The position numbers and the translations under genes were made by a program. The notes under the pieces are model-generated. The model had not been told where the DNA came from. It saw only the letters and a program-made list of their open reading frames with translations, and made no database searches. From positions 310,001-366,412 of the forward strand of contig JALGPX010000014.1 of the NCBI GenBank assembly GCA_023515795.1: a stretch of 56,412 nt of DNA, in the 5' to 3' direction. The DNA comes from Amoeboaphelidium occidentale (Eukaryota). Shown one piece after another: positions 9,913-55,638 of the stretch. Position 1 is the first letter of the stretch; each line of letters begins with the position of its first letter.

Positions 9913-10863
9913 TTAGTATGCCATCCCTTGTTGATGACTTTTGCGTCTTGGCGGAGGAGGTCTACGTGGAGGCGGTGGACGTGCTGTTGTTGTGCGTGGA
10001 CGAGGAGTAGTTGAGGTTGAAACTGTTGAAGTTGTAAGAGTTAAAGTTGACGTCGTGCTAGAGATTGGAACTGTAACACTGGAAGTTGGAGTAGGGCGCA
10101 TAGGTGTACTGCTAGTAGGAGGTGGAGGAGGTGGAGGTACCCTTGTGGATGACTGCGGAGTTGGACGCGTTGAAGTTCTTGTAATTACCGTTGTGCGCGT
10201 AATTGAAGTAGTCCTCGTGGTTGGGCGGGTACTTGTGGTTGGCGTTGTGCGCGTAATTGAAGTAGTCCTTGTGGTTGGCGTTGTTGTCGTTGTTGTTGGC
10301 GGCGGTGCCATTGGAGTTGTACTAGTAGATGGTTTTGGAAAAGGAACGCTGGTTGAAACAGTTTCTGATGGAGGTGAAGGTGGAGGTGCAATTGGAGTTG
10401 TACTAGTAGATGGTTCTGGAAAAGGAACGCTGGTTGAAACAGTTTCTGATGGAGGTGGAGGTGGAACATATGAAGGAACGCTTGTTGTTGAAGTCTCGTA
10501 TCCAGGAGGAGGTACAACATATGAAGGAACGCAGGTTGAAACAGTTTCTGATGGAGGTGGAGGCGGAGGTGGAACATATGCAGGAGGAGGTTCGGGGTAC
10601 GTAGGAGTTTCAGATGGTGTCGGAACAACATAACTTGGAATTTCATGATAGTCTGTTGGTGGAACTTCGTAAACAAGTGAGGTTGAGGCATCAGGGTACA
10701 CAATTTCGTATGTTGAAGAAGCGGGGTACGCGATTTCGTATGTGGAAGCATCAGGATAAGCAACACTTGAAGTAGCAGCACTTGGACATGGCGCAGCATC
10801 ATTTGGTTCCGGAATTGCCAATTGCAATGAAATCAGAGTTGAAACAATGCACAAGAGCTTCAT
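9913..10863 (-). CDS. Secreted Pro/Thr/Ser-rich (extensin/mucin-like) protein, paralog A
   Basis: Signal peptide MKLLCIVSTLISLQLA, PCPS motif, repeated YPDASTYEI and PPPSETVSTSVP units, Thr-rich stalk; no hydrophobic C-terminus. Confidence 0.85.
   Translation of the reverse strand: MKLLCIVSTLISLQLAIPEPNDAAPCPSAATSSVAYPDASTYEIAYPASSTYEIVYPDASTSLVYEVPPTDYHEIPSYVVPTPSETPTYPEPPPAYVPPPPPPPSETVSTCVPSYVVPPPGYETSTTSVPSYVPPPPPSETVSTSVPFPEPSTSTTPIAPPPSPPSETVSTSVPFPKPSTSTTPMAPPPTTTTTTPTTRTTSITRTTPTTSTRPTTRTTSITRTTVITRTSTRPTPQSSTRVPPPPPPPTSSTPMRPTPTSSVTVPISSTTSTLTLTTSTVSTSTTPRPRTTTARPPPPRRPPPPRRKSHQQGMAY
10310..10456. repeat. Intragenic direct repeat (81-nt period, ~66 nt near-identical) encoding PPSETVSTSVPFP(E/K)PSTSTTP
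   Basis: 10310-10375 and 10391-10456 differ at about one position; further SETVST copy upstream in the gene. Confidence 0.9.
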
Positions 10864-11079
10864 GATACTTGTTTTCTAATATATTTTTGGGAAAACAAAT
10901 ATTACGGGATCTATTGGTCGTTATTGTAAGGCCAGTTGTGTCTGTGTCACCCAGCATTGGTTGGTCTTGTCTGTTGCACAAAGCCTATCAAGCGTCACAC
11001 AATAGATCACACAGACACGATTACGGCGCGCCAAGAAACAAAATACAGAGGAAGTGTAACCAAAGTTTTATTATCGTTT

Positions 11080-11457
11080 AGCTCCAGCTCATGCGTCTAC
11101 ATGCTGCGAGCTGGAGTGCGAATGAGCTTTCTTAAAGGGTGAATATCTAGCTCGCTCTGAATCCAGAAACTTAAGTTCATTCTGTTTACATGAGTTGAAA
11201 CAGACAAAGTTTTGGGCGGTTAAAGTCTAATTTAGATTGCTTAACTGTTTGGAACAGGGACATCAACGCTGCACGAAATATCAGACACGTTTTCTTGGAT
11301 TTGAATGCAAATGAAGGTTAAAGACAGGTGATTATGCTTGCATATTTACTTGTACAGTCTCCACCAGCGTAGCCGAGAAATCGGCGATTCGTGTAACGCT
11401 CTTCTAAGTAAGATTTTGTTCTATTTGAACTAATCCTGTAGTGAAAGGCAAGTTATT
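11080..11457 (+). mobile_element. Non-autonomous Fanzor (TnpB-like) remnant, copy 1: degenerate ZF + RuvC-III coding fragment plus conserved 3' tail
   Basis: Translates SFCLHELKQTKFWAVKV / 2-nt frameshift / NLDCLTVWNRDINAARNIRHVFLDLNANEG* (W codon at 11250, stop 11319-11321); ~93% identical to the reverse complement of 55225-55605. Confidence 0.85.
11322..11457 (+). ncRNA. Putative Fanzor omegaRNA scaffold, copy 1
   Basis: Non-coding region after the Fanzor stop, conserved between copies; nested stems TTACTT/AAGTAA, AGCGT/ACGCT, GCCGA-GAAA-TCGGC and terminal AACT..CCT..AGG..AGTT. Expression not shown. Confidence 0.5.
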
Positions 11458-11511
11458 CTTGTCAAAACGGTTTCATTTGAGTATTGATAGTAATTACAAT
11501 GTTAACTTGAC

Positions 11512-12417
11512 CTAACGCATTCCACCTACGCTAGGAGCCCTGCCATTTGGTCCATAACGGTTTACGCGGTTTACAGGAGGTGGTGGTGGAGCATCAATAC
11601 GCCTTGGAGGTGGCGCGACAGGTACACGAGGAGGTGGCGGAGTTGGTACACTAGGAGTTGTTGTGGGAACTGCAGGTGTTGTTCTCGGAACTCCTGGCGT
11701 TGGTGTGATAGACGTGGTCGTGGTGCTTGTTGTTCGAGGAGTGAATACTGGTGATGATGATGTAACAATTAAAGTTGTCGAAGGAGTTGGCATTGTTCTT
11801 GTCCTTACTGTTGCCGTCGTGGAAGGAGTGAAAGACGTTCTTGGTGTGGTTGCAGTCGTTGTCGTCATGATGAATGAAGTTGTTGTTCTTGTTCTTGTCC
11901 TAGTTCTCGTTCTGGGCCTTGTTCTAGTTCGTGTTGTTGTCGTCAATTGAGTAGACGGCGTTGGCTCAACCAATGTAGAGGTTAATATTGTTGATGGGTA
12001 AGTTGACGGAGTTGGTTCTACCAAAGTGCTTGTTCATGTTGTTGAGAAGGGCGGCTCGGTCGTAGGAGGATACATAACCGACGTGGAAGCTGTACAAGTA
12101 GTTGGTGGTGCGGGATATTCAACTGTAACTGTTGTTTCAACGGAGCTCGGAGGCGCCGGAGGAACAACGTATGAAACAGGAGGCAAACTTGATTCTGGCG
12201 CATCAGGAACAGGAACGCTTGGTGGAACGCTAGGATAGCTTGGCGACTCAGTACCTGGCGCATCAGGAACAGGAGCCTCGGGTGGAGGGCTTGAGTAGCT
12301 TGGTGGAGCAGCATCTGGTGTTGTTGAGCCTGAACTAGGGCATGGTGGTCCACCAGGAACTTCTGGAAGAGCAAAGTAAACCGACAAGAATGATGATACA
12401 AGTAGAACCAATTTCAT
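11512..12417 (-). pseudogene. Secreted Pro/Thr-rich protein, paralog B, interrupted by an in-frame TGA (12034-12036)
   Basis: ORFs 12034-12417 and 11512-12024 share one frame: ...FSTT*TSTLVEPTPST...; signal peptide MKLVLLVSSFLSVYFA and PCPS motif as in paralog A. Could be a truncated gene, readthrough or a sequence error. Confidence 0.7.
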
Positions 12418-16501: not shown

Positions 16502-18631
16502 CTATTTTGCTACTTTTGTTACAAGTTTGACTAAATTAGCCAAAGGAGACTGTATGAAGACGTAAAGGCAGGAACCCAAGAGACAAGACCATAAGAATAT
16601 TCCACCAAGACTCAAGAACAAAGAAGCAAGTCTGAAAGGATACTCACGAAGAACGGTTCCAAAGAAAACATGTAGCACGATTATATGAACAAGATACATC
16701 GAAAATGTGAGTCTTCCTAAAACAGCCCATCCTCTCCATGACGCAAATCGAGTAAGAATGTGTGTGGATTCCGGCGAGACAACAGAAGGTAGAGCCAATA
16801 GTCCTAAGCCTAAAGCCCAAAATATTCTAGATAATCCATTATAAGCAGCATTCATGTAAATACCATGGTCCTTCTCTGTCTCTTTCAATTCTTCAGTTGC
16901 GTTTCGGATCACAAATGGCAAGTACAGAGTGACGAGCAACAATACTCCGCCAAGTATTTGAAGTAAAGGAGTAACAAGTCTACTAATTGTGACTCTTCTT
17001 TTTCTCAGACTGAAACTGTAGTATGCAAAAATCACTCCGATCGTAGATGAATTCAAGTGATTGTAAGGTTTTGTCAAGAACTCTTTTAGGAACAATGGCA
17101 TACCCTTTGCATCTCTATCAAATAATACTGTTGGAATACTGTACTTCATAGTAAGCAACGCACTTGTGCATGACGCTGCAATTATTGCAAGAATTAATGC
17201 GAGGAAACCAAAATATTTCCAGCATTTGCCAAACCACAAAGGAACAATGAAAAGAGGTAGTAGAAGATACAATTGAAAATTGATAGACATGAACCATGAC
17301 CACGGGACACATACATCCTTTGTTTCAGTAGGATAAAAGTTATTGATGTACAATAGATTTGTCCACCAGAATCGCGAGCAAGTAGATTCGACACTATCCA
17401 CTTGTTTGAACCAAACAGGACCATTGCCCATTAGTGGGAACAAAAAGAACCAAGTAAACAAAGTGATAGCATACAAAGGCGTAACTCTGAAAAGGAAAGA
17501 AAATACGTAGTCAATGTAATTGAACATTTTTCTCGTGACATTCTTGGAAAAAGTCAAGTAAGCAGCAAAAAAGGCAGTTGTAAACAAAAAAGTATCAAGC
17601 GACAAGGGAGAATTGCTGAGAATCATCATAGCCGAGTAATCAGTCATTTCCAAAACAGTTTTCAAATCTACAGGAGCAATGTCCATGATCAGAAGAAATG
17701 TAACACCTAGCATTGCCCAAAGTAAAGATATGACTTTGAAGACATTGAATAGATTGACTTCTTCATGAGCTTGTGGTGAGCCTCTAAAAAGAGATGGTAT
17801 TGTAGAGTAAAGCGAGAAGCAAGTAATCAGGCGGAATAGGAAAGATCTCTCCGGTGGTTCTTGGGTTTTGATTATCAAAGGTGTATCTTCTAGAGGTTCA
17901 GCCAATGTGTCTGAACTCGATGAGGACAAATATTCCTTCGGTGGTTTTCCTTCTTCTTGTGTAATATCACAAGTAGCCGGAGTGCTCTTGTCCTTTGCTC
18001 TCAGAGCGTAAACTAGAACATACTCTAGAATTGTAGCGCCAACGCTGAACAGGACAATTATGACCAAACAGCTGAGAAATGTAATCGCAGAAGCTGACCA
18101 TTCAACTTTACCAAAAGGATGTACATTTGTAACATTATAGGAAAAGTTTAACTGTTCATCTTGAACAAAGTTTGAAACAAGTAGAGTGAATGGTGCCTGC
18201 TTGTAGAAAGCTTCTACTTTGGAGGTCATCATAACTTGATCACTCCCATCACCTGGAATCGCACCTTTGATATACTCAATGATCTGATTCACAACATCTT
18301 TGACATCTTCAGTATCACATGTAGATGGTAAGCAAACACCCAAGCTCGATGGCAAAACATTCCCAGCCACAACAAGATCACCTTCAACCAGATTATAAGT
18401 GAAATTGAAACCATCTTCGCTATCATCAACAAGTGAAACACATTCTTCAAGATCACCCAGAGATGTGAATGATCCACGCAGAGCACCAACTGGTTTGCCC
18501 CATGAGTCCAAAGCTTTTACTAACAAAATCTTCTTTTCCAACAAGCCTGAGATAGAGCCAATACATTCCCAGGACAATGATAGAGAGCCAGTAAGCGATA
18601 AGAGTAATATCGCAAGTCTCACAGCCAACAT
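16502..18631 (-). CDS. NRF-6/OACYL-like membrane protein (NRF domain + acyltransferase-3), paralog 1
   Basis: Signal peptide, DSWGKP...LGD..EC...GVCLPSTC (NRF domain), multi-TM region with GPVW...C..FWWTNLLYINN...C.PWSW. Confidence 0.88.
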   Translation of the reverse strand: MLAVRLAILLLSLTGSLSLSWECIGSISGLLEKKILLVKALDSWGKPVGALRGSFTSLGDLEECVSLVDDSEDGFNFTYNLVEGDLVVAGNVLPSSLGVCLPSTCDTEDVKDVVNQIIEYIKGAIPGDGSDQVMMTSKVEAFYKQAPFTLLVSNFVQDEQLNFSYNVTNVHPFGKVEWSASAITFLSCLVIIVLFSVGATILEYVLVYALRAKDKSTPATCDITQEEGKPPKEYLSSSSSDTLAEPLEDTPLIIKTQEPPERSFLFRLITCFSLYSTIPSLFRGSPQAHEEVNLFNVFKVISLLWAMLGVTFLLIMDIAPVDLKTVLEMTDYSAMMILSNSPLSLDTFLFTTAFFAAYLTFSKNVTRKMFNYIDYVFSFLFRVTPLYAITLFTWFFLFPLMGNGPVWFKQVDSVESTCSRFWWTNLLYINNFYPTETKDVCVPWSWFMSINFQLYLLLPLFIVPLWFGKCWKYFGFLALILAIIAASCTSALLTMKYSIPTVLFDRDAKGMPLFLKEFLTKPYNHLNSSTIGVIFAYYSFSLRKRRVTISRLVTPLLQILGGVLLLVTLYLPFVIRNATEELKETEKDHGIYMNAAYNGLSRIFWALGLGLLALPSVVSPESTHILTRFASWRGWAVLGRLTFSMYLVHIIVLHVFFGTVLREYPFRLASLFLSLGGIFLWSCLLGSCLYVFIQSPLANLVKLVTKVAK

Positions 18632-18802
18632 GACCTGTGAGCTGAAACAAGTTTTTGCGAAAGAACAAACAACGCCAAACAATTCCCAGGACCTTAAGAC
18701 CTCTATGAGCCATTAAATTTTAACCTAATCACTGTTGGATGACTCATCCTCTGCAAATTAACATGCGCCAACTCACTCTGTCCTAAACTTTTTACTGAAA
18801 GA

Positions 18803-53099: not shown

Positions 53100-55229
53100 A
53101 TGAAATCATTCCGATTGGCCCTGTGGGCTGCGCTCTCTGCCTCCGTTGCATTTAGTATCTCTGATAACTGCACGGCTGATATCCAATCCCTCTTGGCGAA
53201 GCAGACGTTGCTTACTCAAGCGATCGACTCTTTTGGTAAGCCTGTTGGTGCTTTTCGTGGTTCCTTCTCTTCTCTTGGAGACTACGTTGAGTGCACAGAG
53301 TTAATTGATGCAGATCTCGAGAATCCTTTATCATTCCGATATGCTTTGGTTGAAGGTGCATTGATTCTGCAAGCTGGAAATGCTCCAATTCCTCCTTTGG
53401 CTTCATCGCTTGGTGTTTGTTTTCCTTCTCAGTGTGATAAGGATGATATCACGGAAGGAATGGGTCTGATTTTTGAGTTCTTGAAGAGTAAATTGGGTGG
53501 TGGCGGTGGTGGTCCTCCTGGTCTTGACGGTGTTTCACAGTTAGCTGGACAATCATCATCATTTTTCAGGACTGTAGCAAATACCGCGTACTCGGCGCTA
53601 TTTGACGAGAGTGCACCTGAGCAGCCTGGCCTTAATGTTGCGTATATTGTTAATAGTGTTAATTTTGCGTATGAAGCAGATTGGGATACTCCATCGATCG
53701 TTGTTTTGTCTGTATTGGGAGGATTAACGGCCATCTGTATTTTGGCTACTCTGGCTGATTATTTGATGAAACGCTTTACCGAGTCGGAACTGGATAAGGA
53801 AGCTCTTTCAATGCTTGGTCATTCTGGTAGTGATGCCACGCTGGGTGAAAGATCACCATTGCTAACTGATCTATCTGCTTCTCGCGCCACCGATTATTCC
53901 GTTCATCCAAGAAAGAAGAATATTTTCGTGAAAATATTGCATGCATTCTCATTGTACAAGAATATTCCAATTTTGTTATCTAACAAAACACCCGCACCTG
54001 AGTTGAATATCCTTAACCTTTTGAGGTTGGTCTCAATTTGGTGGGTTGTAATGGGACACACTTTCCTTACAACGGCTTTAGAGTATGCGCATGTCGACTT
54101 GTTGAATGTATTCAGTGTTACCAAAGATTCATCTGTAATGATATTTTTAAATGCATTCTTTTCTGTTGAGACATTCTTCTACTTGAGTGCTTTCTTGGTC
54201 TCCTATATTGCATTCAACACCGAGAATTTCCTCAAGAAGTTTAACTACTTGAAGTATGCATTGTTTCGTTATTTGAGATTGACTCCGTCTTATGCATTGA
54301 CTTTATTCTTTTGGACTTATGTTTTCAAGAATCTTGGTGAAGGTCCTGTTTGGTTCAGGAAAGTTCAGAATATTAAGGAATCCTGTAGTAATTATTGGTG
54401 GACAAACATGCTTTACATTAATAATATTTACATGGATAAGATTGAGTCGGTTTGCATGCCATGGTCTTGGTACTTGAGCGTTGATTATCAGTTGTGGTTA
54501 GCATTGCCATTGTTCTTGCTCCCATTGTTTTACCTTTCGCACAGAAAATGGATCGGATACTTGTGGTTGGGTGCTGGAACCATTGGTGGTCTAATTTCTG
54601 TAATCGTCTCCAATTACGTTGAAGAAATTCCTGCTACGTTTACAGGTCAAGGCGATGGCTCTATGCGTTGGATGACCTTGTTCTACTTTAGGCCTTACAG
54701 TCATTTGTCTGTTTCATTGCTTGCAGTCTTTGCTGCTGCTTGCGCCTCAAGTTTGAGAGCAAGAAATTACAAGATCAATTATGTTTTAATTGCATTGAGT
54801 CAAGCGTTGGGAGCTGTTTTAATGATAATCACCGTGTACTATCCTTATGATGAAGTCAAGAATCCTGGAACATGGACCAACTTGAGAAATGCAATGTTCA
54901 ATGGCTTCTCAAAGATCTTATGGTCTCTTGGGTTATCATTCTTCATCTTGCCATCAATTATTAACCCACAAAGAACAAGATTATTGACAACTTTTAGCGC
55001 TTGGTCTGGATGGAAAGTTGCTGCAAAATTAACTTACTCGGTTTACTTGGTACATTACATGCTCAACTACGTTTTCTTTGCTTCTAGATTGAGAGAGGAA
55101 GCTTACAAACCTGCCACTTTTGTGTTTAACTTTGGTGGCGTCTTATGGTGGTCATACTTGGCAGCTGTTCTGATGTTCCTGTTCATTGAAGCACCCTTCG
55201 GAAACTTGCTGAAACTCTTGAAGAAATAA
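53100..55229 (+). CDS. NRF-6/OACYL-like O-acyltransferase (acyltransferase-3), paralog 2
   Basis: Signal peptide, NRF domain, LRLVSIWWVVMGH (R-x10-H), FFSVETFF.LS, RYLRLTP, WYLSVDYQL. Confidence 0.9.
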   Translation: MKSFRLALWAALSASVAFSISDNCTADIQSLLAKQTLLTQAIDSFGKPVGAFRGSFSSLGDYVECTELIDADLENPLSFRYALVEGALILQAGNAPIPPLASSLGVCFPSQCDKDDITEGMGLIFEFLKSKLGGGGGGPPGLDGVSQLAGQSSSFFRTVANTAYSALFDESAPEQPGLNVAYIVNSVNFAYEADWDTPSIVVLSVLGGLTAICILATLADYLMKRFTESELDKEALSMLGHSGSDATLGERSPLLTDLSASRATDYSVHPRKKNIFVKILHAFSLYKNIPILLSNKTPAPELNILNLLRLVSIWWVVMGHTFLTTALEYAHVDLLNVFSVTKDSSVMIFLNAFFSVETFFYLSAFLVSYIAFNTENFLKKFNYLKYALFRYLRLTPSYALTLFFWTYVFKNLGEGPVWFRKVQNIKESCSNYWWTNMLYINNIYMDKIESVCMPWSWYLSVDYQLWLALPLFLLPLFYLSHRKWIGYLWLGAGTIGGLISVIVSNYVEEIPATFTGQGDGSMRWMTLFYFRPYSHLSVSLLAVFAAACASSLRARNYKINYVLIALSQALGAVLMIITVYYPYDEVKNPGTWTNLRNAMFNGFSKILWSLGLSFFILPSIINPQRTRLLTTFSAWSGWKVAAKLTYSVYLVHYMLNYVFFASRLREEAYKPATFVFNFGGVLWWSYLAAVLMFLFIEAPFGNLLKLLKK

Positions 55230-55605
55230 CTGGCCCTTCGCTACAGGATTAGTTCAAATAAAATCCAAATCTTACTTAGAAGAGCGTTACACGAATCGCC
55301 GATTTCTCAGCTACGCTGGCGGAGACTGTACAAGTAAATATGCTGCCATAATCACCTGTCATTAACCTTCATTTGCATTCAAATCCAAAAATACGTGTCT
55401 GATATTTCGTGCAGCGTTGATGTCCCTCTTCCAAACAGTTAAGCAATCTAAATTTCAGACTTTAACCGCCCAAAACTTTGTCTGTTTCAACTCATGTAAA
55501 CAGAATGAGCATAACTTGCAGGGTTCAGATCGAGCTAGATATTCACCCTTTAAGAAAGCGCATTCGCACTCCAGCTCGCAGCTTGTAGACGCTTGAGGTG
55601 GAGCT
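55225..55605 (-). mobile_element. Non-autonomous Fanzor (TnpB-like) remnant, copy 2
   Basis: One frame on the minus strand: CKLCSFCLHELKQTKFWAVKV*NLDCLTVWKRDINAARNIRHVFLDLNANEG* (TGA at a likely Cys, 55455-55457; RuvC-III motif 55401-55433; stop 55362-55364), then the conserved structured tail. Confidence 0.85.
55257..55262 (+). promoter_or_regulatory. AATAAA polyadenylation signal for acyltransferase paralog 2, lying inside the Fanzor remnant
   Basis: 28 nt after the TAA; AATAAA also follows stops at 16475, 19830, 27552, 36123, 37277, 38798, 40317 and 48065. Confidence 0.6.
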
Positions 55606-55638
55606 CTGCGCGATCAATTGATCGATTAATTTTGAGCA

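Follow-up and report, generated by a model that had tools for sequence, protein, structure and literature searches.

A multi-copy, internally deleted Fanzor1 element of Amoeboaphelidium occidentale whose right end probably encodes an inherited omegaRNA scaffold

Analysis of a 56,412-nucleotide stretch of an Amoeboaphelidium occidentale contig (the window) revealed two copies of a short element with defined ends, a broken Fanzor1 remnant, an internal deletion and flanks that vary from locus to locus. The explanation we prefer, with moderate confidence, is that the segment under study forms the right end of a Fanzor1 transposon, ~380 bp long, present in many copies and internally deleted, and likely encodes an inherited omegaRNA scaffold with three predicted stems. 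An earlier note on this DNA had classed the segment as a Fanzor-derived non-coding 3' end with locus-specific flanks, and that class holds for Fanzor1, whereas three of the four stems, the G-U evidence, the conservation argument and the stop codon on which it had been built do not. The window itself is a gene-dense eukaryotic contig bearing formin, anoctamin, TRAPPC9 and synaptojanin-like genes, among others, with short introns and the standard code. Host open reading frames use all three stops, which ruled out stop-codon reassignment as the cause of in-frame stops. An Rfam search returned 2 chance matches at E 9.7, neither inside the element, and a tRNA search found none. Copy 1 is flanked by two Pro/Thr-rich genes (9913-10863 and 11512-12417, the latter on the minus strand) whose starts resemble signal peptides and for which Pfam gave no match; the second has an in-frame TGA at 12034-12036, after which the frame goes on for 173 codons.

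The second copy aligned to the first at 55605-55225 on the minus strand with 353/381 identical positions (92.7%), and the window held no third. We set the bounds of the element at 11075-11452 for copy 1 and 55612-55230 for copy 2 (minus strand), each between TTAT-like motifs, because the consensus of the left contigs extends a few bases past the two-copy alignment. The element was also found at many loci in three sequencing runs (X1, X8 and X13), with a sharp right boundary and unlike flanks; run X1 is perhaps the window's own source and so does not count as independent support. Summed read depth in X1 was 3,000-55,000 across the element versus 107 on the flanks, which indicates many copies, although summed depth gives no copy number. 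Exact element patterns had no match in the viral or metagenome contigs searched. As the earlier note had stated, similarity fades after AGTTATT: the two-copy alignment stops there, and at least 19 contigs (8 from X1 and 11 from X8) diverge at that motif or at most 5 bases further out, with an agreement among their flanks of 0.49-0.61. At least one X13 contig diverges 5 bases earlier, reading CTAG after CAG. At the left end, 12 X1, 2 X8 and 1 X13 contigs agree on TTTAT plus the first element bases.

Copy 1 thus lies between a left TTAT at 11071-11074 (+), for which the family consensus reads TTTAT, and a right TTAT at 11453-11456 (+) following G11452, the last base of the element by the contig boundaries. 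Both motifs are likely copies of the target site. Copy 2 reads TGAT on its left and TTAT on its right (55226-55229, minus strand). Because no empty site was seen, we infer, rather than observe, that TTAT is a target-site duplication. Terminal inverted repeats were absent (0 pairs), with no inverted pair of 11 nt or more. The left-end module of copy 1 (11075-11163, +), whose counterpart in copy 2 is intact, is not Fanzor coding sequence and holds a 10-bp hairpin at 11081-11117 with a predicted pairing probability of 0.99 and a folding z of -2.5 for 11075-11180; as DNA, the hairpin is stable in either strand (-10.7/-10.4 kcal/mol). Decay of coding sequence was ruled out as the origin of this module, as an X13 contig has true codons there (RARLVNEHNT) and joins at 11163; tblastn extended into it only at noise level.

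Beyond the right boundary, the locus-specific flank at 11457-11476 (+) would be the guide of copy 1. Identity between the copies beyond 11457 was 18/43, and, with up to 4 mismatches allowed, the best matches listed for this flank in the window included no second target with a TTAT motif. In both copies the right end faces the 3' end of a host gene, copy 2 lying on a stop codon and copy 1 55 bp from one, and the target reads AATAAA-like on the opposite strand; with n=2 in a compact genome, this placement may be due to chance. The host NRF/acyltransferase open reading frame at 53100-55229 (+) takes its stop codon (TAA at 55227-55229) from the complement of the right TTAT of copy 2, and a paralog at 16502-18682 has no element at its end.

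The coding remnant (11164-11318, +) comprises the last ~50 codons of a Fanzor1 gene, including the zinc finger and the RuvC-III WNRD motif. It is dead in both copies, with a frameshift near 11228 in copy 1 and two in-frame stops in copy 2 (55230-55612, minus strand). In a tblastn comparison with P0034, 18/19 and 44/47 residues were identical in two frames, and P0002 was 87% identical to the remnant; NCBI labels both proteins Amoeboaphelidium occidentale. The remnant's Pfam match to Cas12f1-like_TNB had an E of 0.001-0.002, below the cut-off, a word-based protein search with the short remnant gave no match, and a first viral scan yielded 14 distant TnpB-like loci. An unindexed protein search returned 31 relatives at E<=0.001, several of them 675-739 aa long, and a profile of these relatives had SpuFz1 (2.5e-17), PpFz1 (5.3e-11) and GtFz1 (1e-9) as its best PDB matches, ahead of TnpB. 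On the homology of its TNB zinc finger and RuvC-III (WNRD..AA.NI) to Fz1, we class the family as Fanzor1. P0034, a family protein of 325 aa, keeps all three RuvC motifs in a rearranged form (LDPG, VNEHNTS and WNRD), with a nearly invariant alternative Glu, E253, just before the zinc finger. The window copies lack both RuvC-I and the alternative Glu. No full-length protein of the exact family was found, none of the 21 matches to P0034 being at least 570 aa long and above 50% identity, and tblastn detected no full-length Fanzor1 gene in the window.

Other Fanzor1 families of A. occidentale are 34-44% identical to P0034. Several named A. occidentale Fanzor1 models (P0045, P0046, P0054 and P0062) are built of fragments repeated in tandem, reaching 1744 aa, and represent either concatemeric elements or assembly artefacts. 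The remnant of copy 1 is itself predicted to form hairpins of 15+6 bp and 7 bp, at 11209-11255 and 11181-11204, respectively (p 0.8-0.9, computed with no controls).

The TAA at 11319-11321, which the earlier note took to be the Fanzor stop, proved to be a deletion product rather than the stop of the family. It lies at the joint (11316-11325, +) left by a deletion of ~75 bp between two 10-bp near-direct repeats and appears to come from the downstream repeat. In place of the 2 letters that the window has at this joint, an X12 contig has 77, and contigs of X1, X8 and X13 have loose ends on either side of it. P0002 and P0033 are of the long form, with the C-terminus GGKRPLAFSRK(T/N)RA, and P0034 reads through the short form, its C-terminus GGKRQVIMLAYLLVQSPPA being identical at 16/16 residues to 11322-11369. 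Thus a coding member of the family carries the same deletion, and its frame runs 50 nt into the candidate RNA.

Positions 11322-11457, the right end of the element, likely encode the family's omegaRNA scaffold, for which a fold with three helices common to both copies is predicted. The first, a predicted stem-loop at 11324-11353 (+), begins right at the deletion joint and has 8 + 4 bp with two G-U pairs (p 0.97-0.99 in both copies). The three adjacent copy differences here all fall in its tetraloop, CUUG in copy 1 and GCAG in copy 2, both of which we take to resemble stable tetraloops. Its energies were -9.8/-10.9 kcal/mol (copy 1/2) as sense RNA, compared to -1.4/-1.0 as antisense RNA and -1.4/-2.4 as DNA, and among 30-mers this strand bias was matched by 5 and 3 of 200 shuffles and by 3 and 2 of 200 genomic stretches. 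The predicted GNRA hairpin follows at 11372-11385 (+; p about 1.0 in copy 1 and 0.32 in copy 2), and a one-base insertion inside it, after 11382/11383, is common in the family (X1, X8 and X13). The predicted terminal stem, which has a variable interior (11393-11456, +), pairs 11393-11404 with 11443-11456 and closes over the boundary TTAT (p 0.77-0.96; matched by 12 and 5 of 150 shuffles), with one C-A mismatch in copy 1. As DNA, the right-end stems are weak (-1.4 to -3.8 kcal/mol).

For the region as a whole, the folding z was -1.67 in copy 1 and -1.00 in copy 2, reached by 12 and 30 of 200 shuffles, respectively. The strand-specific structure support that had been claimed for it was lost, since 21 of 200 composition shuffles reached it in each copy. 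Variant events were gathered from the contig tables and the two-copy alignment; of 14 such events, 1 fell in the first and terminal stems versus 4.9 expected (P=0.019), a depletion that was gone when the GNRA stem was added (4/14, P=0.22), and these stem statistics are post hoc, marginal and partly circular. Compensatory changes were absent under either fold model (0 pairs changed on both sides), the two full sequences having too little divergence. The part after the stop is about as conserved as the coding part, as had been reported (125/137 positions after 11321 versus 186/198 in the remnant; Fisher p=0.39), and because the remnant is dead in both copies this equality speaks for common age and not for selection.

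Comparison with related Fanzor1 families suggested that the placement of the target site within a terminal stem may recur. Related loci were fetched for the best 80 of 187 metagenome matches plus 9 viral ones, and the post-stop region had no nucleotide similarity to the 103 related loci. Paired copies defined the right end in 10 families, at least three of which, two of them related to each other, end at G-TTA-N. In the G-TTA-N families, 12/14 sequences had a best fold in which the TTA paired with a UAA lying upstream of it, across loops of 4 to about 55 nt (locus L044 was left out of this count), compared to 21/150 control window stretches ending in GTTAN that paired likewise at p>=0.4. Transposases lie beside three close Fanzor1 relatives (L015:1-870, L016:289-1236 and L020:1033-1947) and are Pogo-like (DDE_1) or IS630/Tc1-like (DDE_3); in L016, transposase and Fanzor stand together between 25-nt inverted arms. 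The presence of DDE transposases beside three relatives, one of them within inverted repeats, suggests that the clade rides different transposons. In L045, a 13-bp duplication (1051-1063) flanks a 5'-truncated Fanzor1 copy that ends on the right near 2135, and L046 shows the same arrangement. The duplication begins with TTAT, that is, the target motif plus the first guide bases; it recalls the variable duplications of truncated CRe-1 copies and could record repair at a Fanzor cut.

We propose that the scaffold was inherited from the full-length element, with the last of its three stems closing over the TTAT target site. As in characterised Fanzors, transcription through TTAT would yield a scaffold of ~133 nt followed by ~15-20 nt of flank as its guide, and a full-length Fanzor of the family would use that RNA to cut empty alleles with a TTTAT-like TAM; passages of 10.1101/2023.11.20.567912 describe the cutting of vacant sites as a retention device for TnpB. 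The filled right junction would be spared because it reads GTTAT, which is not TTTAT-like. A transposase that still recognises the ends of the short copies would account for their spread, and most of these copies, both window copies included, would be drifting passengers and at best guide donors. The window copies are read as passengers because both have stem-weakening changes, namely the C-A mismatch in the terminal stem of copy 1 and a private C-to-T in the GNRA stem of copy 2, and because their flanks are predicted to pair back on their own scaffolds (p 0.58 for 15 nt in copy 1 and 0.83 for 20 nt in copy 2).

Other explanations differ from this proposal in the fold, in the activity of the short copies or in the nature of the stems. 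Every motif that the earlier note named lies where it had been placed, and its nested fold could in principle be held by the protein against the free-energy minimum, as proteins can remodel RNA. All 46/46 cells of that fold pair in the two copies, and of its stems the GNRA hairpin is shared with our prediction. However, the probability that TTACTT pairs with AAGTAA, AGCGT with ACGCT or AACT with AGTT on the sense strand was 0.00-0.02 in either copy, the pairing of AGCGT with ACGCT is stronger in the antisense orientation, and the terminal AACT..AGTT hairpin appeared only when the whole copy 2 element was folded (p 0.57-0.70). The forced fold is 13-15 kcal/mol less favourable than the minimum, the inner pair of its first stem is broken by an A-to-C variant found in 4 X1 contigs, and its stems mutate at chance (5/14 variant events versus 4.7 expected). 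It is literally true that the copy differences in these stems keep G-U pairing on the sense strand, but as evidence of structure this comes down to two single changes, a private C-to-T at a CpG in copy 2 (C in 10/10 X1 contigs) and a minority A in copy 1 where the family majority is G. We therefore regard the three-stem prediction as better supported and the nested fold as very improbable. By analogy with SpuFz1, for which passages of PMC10432273 describe ghost omegaRNAs whose scaffolds work when co-expressed with the protein, the short copies might instead form an active library whose transcripts a master Fanzor would take up in trans, with the scaffolds under selection. The deletion stopping exactly where the first stem starts, the avoidance of the first and terminal stems by variants and the retention of all three RuvC motifs in the 325-aa P0034 would fit such a library. 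Yet the 21 matches to P0034 included no full-length cognate, stems are weakened in both copies, the 3' part is no better conserved than dead coding sequence and no source of transcription was identified, so we think this rather unlikely.

The stems could also be DNA-level end signals for a single-strand (HUH-type) transposase, the real omegaRNA having been crippled or lost with the 75-bp deletion. Such a mover would be in keeping with the absence of terminal inverted repeats, with a left-end hairpin that either strand can form stably as DNA and that resembles Helitron2 left hairpins (PMC3627910, in part), and with short direct motifs at both ends that resemble the Replitron termini described in parts of PMC10288648. 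Passages of PMC3627910 define Helitron2 by a 5' hairpin, an asymmetric inverted repeat 20-30 bp from the 3' end and then a 3' hairpin. The aphelid element has a 5' hairpin but no inverted pair of 11 nt or more, and we saw no asymmetric repeat with a 3' hairpin of this type. The weakness of the right-end stems as DNA, the sense-RNA specificity of the first stem, the DDE nature of the transposases beside the nearest relatives (L015, L016 and L020) and the occurrence of the same deletion in the coding member P0034 further argue against this explanation, which we judge improbable. No more probable, in our estimate, is a more far-reaching version of the guide library, in which dispersed copies sit in AATAAA-like sites (TTTATT on their own strand), often at gene 3' ends, and would supply guides antisense to the gene end that arm a few master nucleases in trans, the mover being a transposase of a type not yet tied to Fanzors.

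Among known systems, the Spu-1 ghosts of Spizellomyces punctatus are close in layout. As passages of PMC10432273 present them, they are likewise Fanzor1-related and exist as numerous non-coding copies in which both ends and the 3' scaffold region are retained, with a guide taken from the flank and a TAM that includes bases upstream of the left end. They are ~550 nt long, with 30-nt inverted repeats, no Fz ORF, a 75-nt scaffold and the TAM CATA, unlike the aphelid element of ~380 bp, which has no inverted repeats, a C-terminal remnant, a predicted scaffold of ~133 nt and TTAT ends. With respect to the ghost definition given by Saito (PMC10432273, in the passages available), the element keeps both ends and has no functional Fz ORF, but inverted repeats are absent and ~50 Fz codons remain. 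By its sequence, then, it is ghost-like in layout, but a partial-gene deletion derivative.

In the predicted arrangement of its RNA the element resembles the SfAV-1 and HAgv-1 group. Parts of 10.1101/2023.08.09.552727 describe insect-virus Fanzor1 RNAs with three stems, a ~120-nt scaffold and a TTAN duplication inside the guide-side stem, and, together with parts of PMC3627910, insertion at TTTAN with TTAN at both ends. The target-site bases lie within the stem next to the guide in both cases, here in a predicted fold. According to the same two sources, again in part, members of this group combine an intact 606-aa gene with inverted repeats of 13 bp; the aphelid element, in contrast, has no inverted repeats, draws the partner strand of the stem from ~60 nt inside and has its gene deleted. 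The first stem is predicted at 8+4 bp here, compared to 7 bp in three Fz1 structures (PMC11423790, in the passages seen). Like the Helitron2-borne Fanzor1 elements CRe-1/2/3 and the Replitrons, as portions of PMC3627910 and PMC10288648 describe them, the element has no inverted repeats, a T-rich target and end hairpins or direct repeats. Unlike them, on those same portions, it lacks the asymmetric repeat with a 3' hairpin and no HUH gene was seen, and its ends are fixed rather than variably 5'-truncated.

Proteins of the genus have been tabulated before. Saito supplementary file 3 (PMC10432273), in the part available, labels Amoeboaphelidium proteins of 749, 783, 804 and 1744 aa as FZ1, which match P0055, P0046, P0059 and P0045 by length and, in three cases, also by start. 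They belong to the same clade and genus, but are 34-44% identical to P0034. That file lacks the accessions of P0034 and P0002, and passages of PMC10432273 report neither an omegaRNA nor element ends for the tabulated Amoeboaphelidium proteins. We found no main text that combines Amoeboaphelidium and Fanzor, and the two supplements of Jiang (PMC10530073) contain no Amoeboaphelidium.

In sum, the concept stands unchanged, as ghosts and flank-derived guides have already been published. For an aphelid Fanzor1 clade previously listed, in the parts of the literature consulted, only as proteins, these results add ends, a predicted TTTAT-like TAM and a predicted scaffold. The predicted folds suggest that a guide-side stem incorporating the target-site TTA extends well beyond insect viruses. 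With its compact genome and many short copies, A. occidentale is a good place to ask whether Fanzor copies without a gene are expressed and put to use in their native host.
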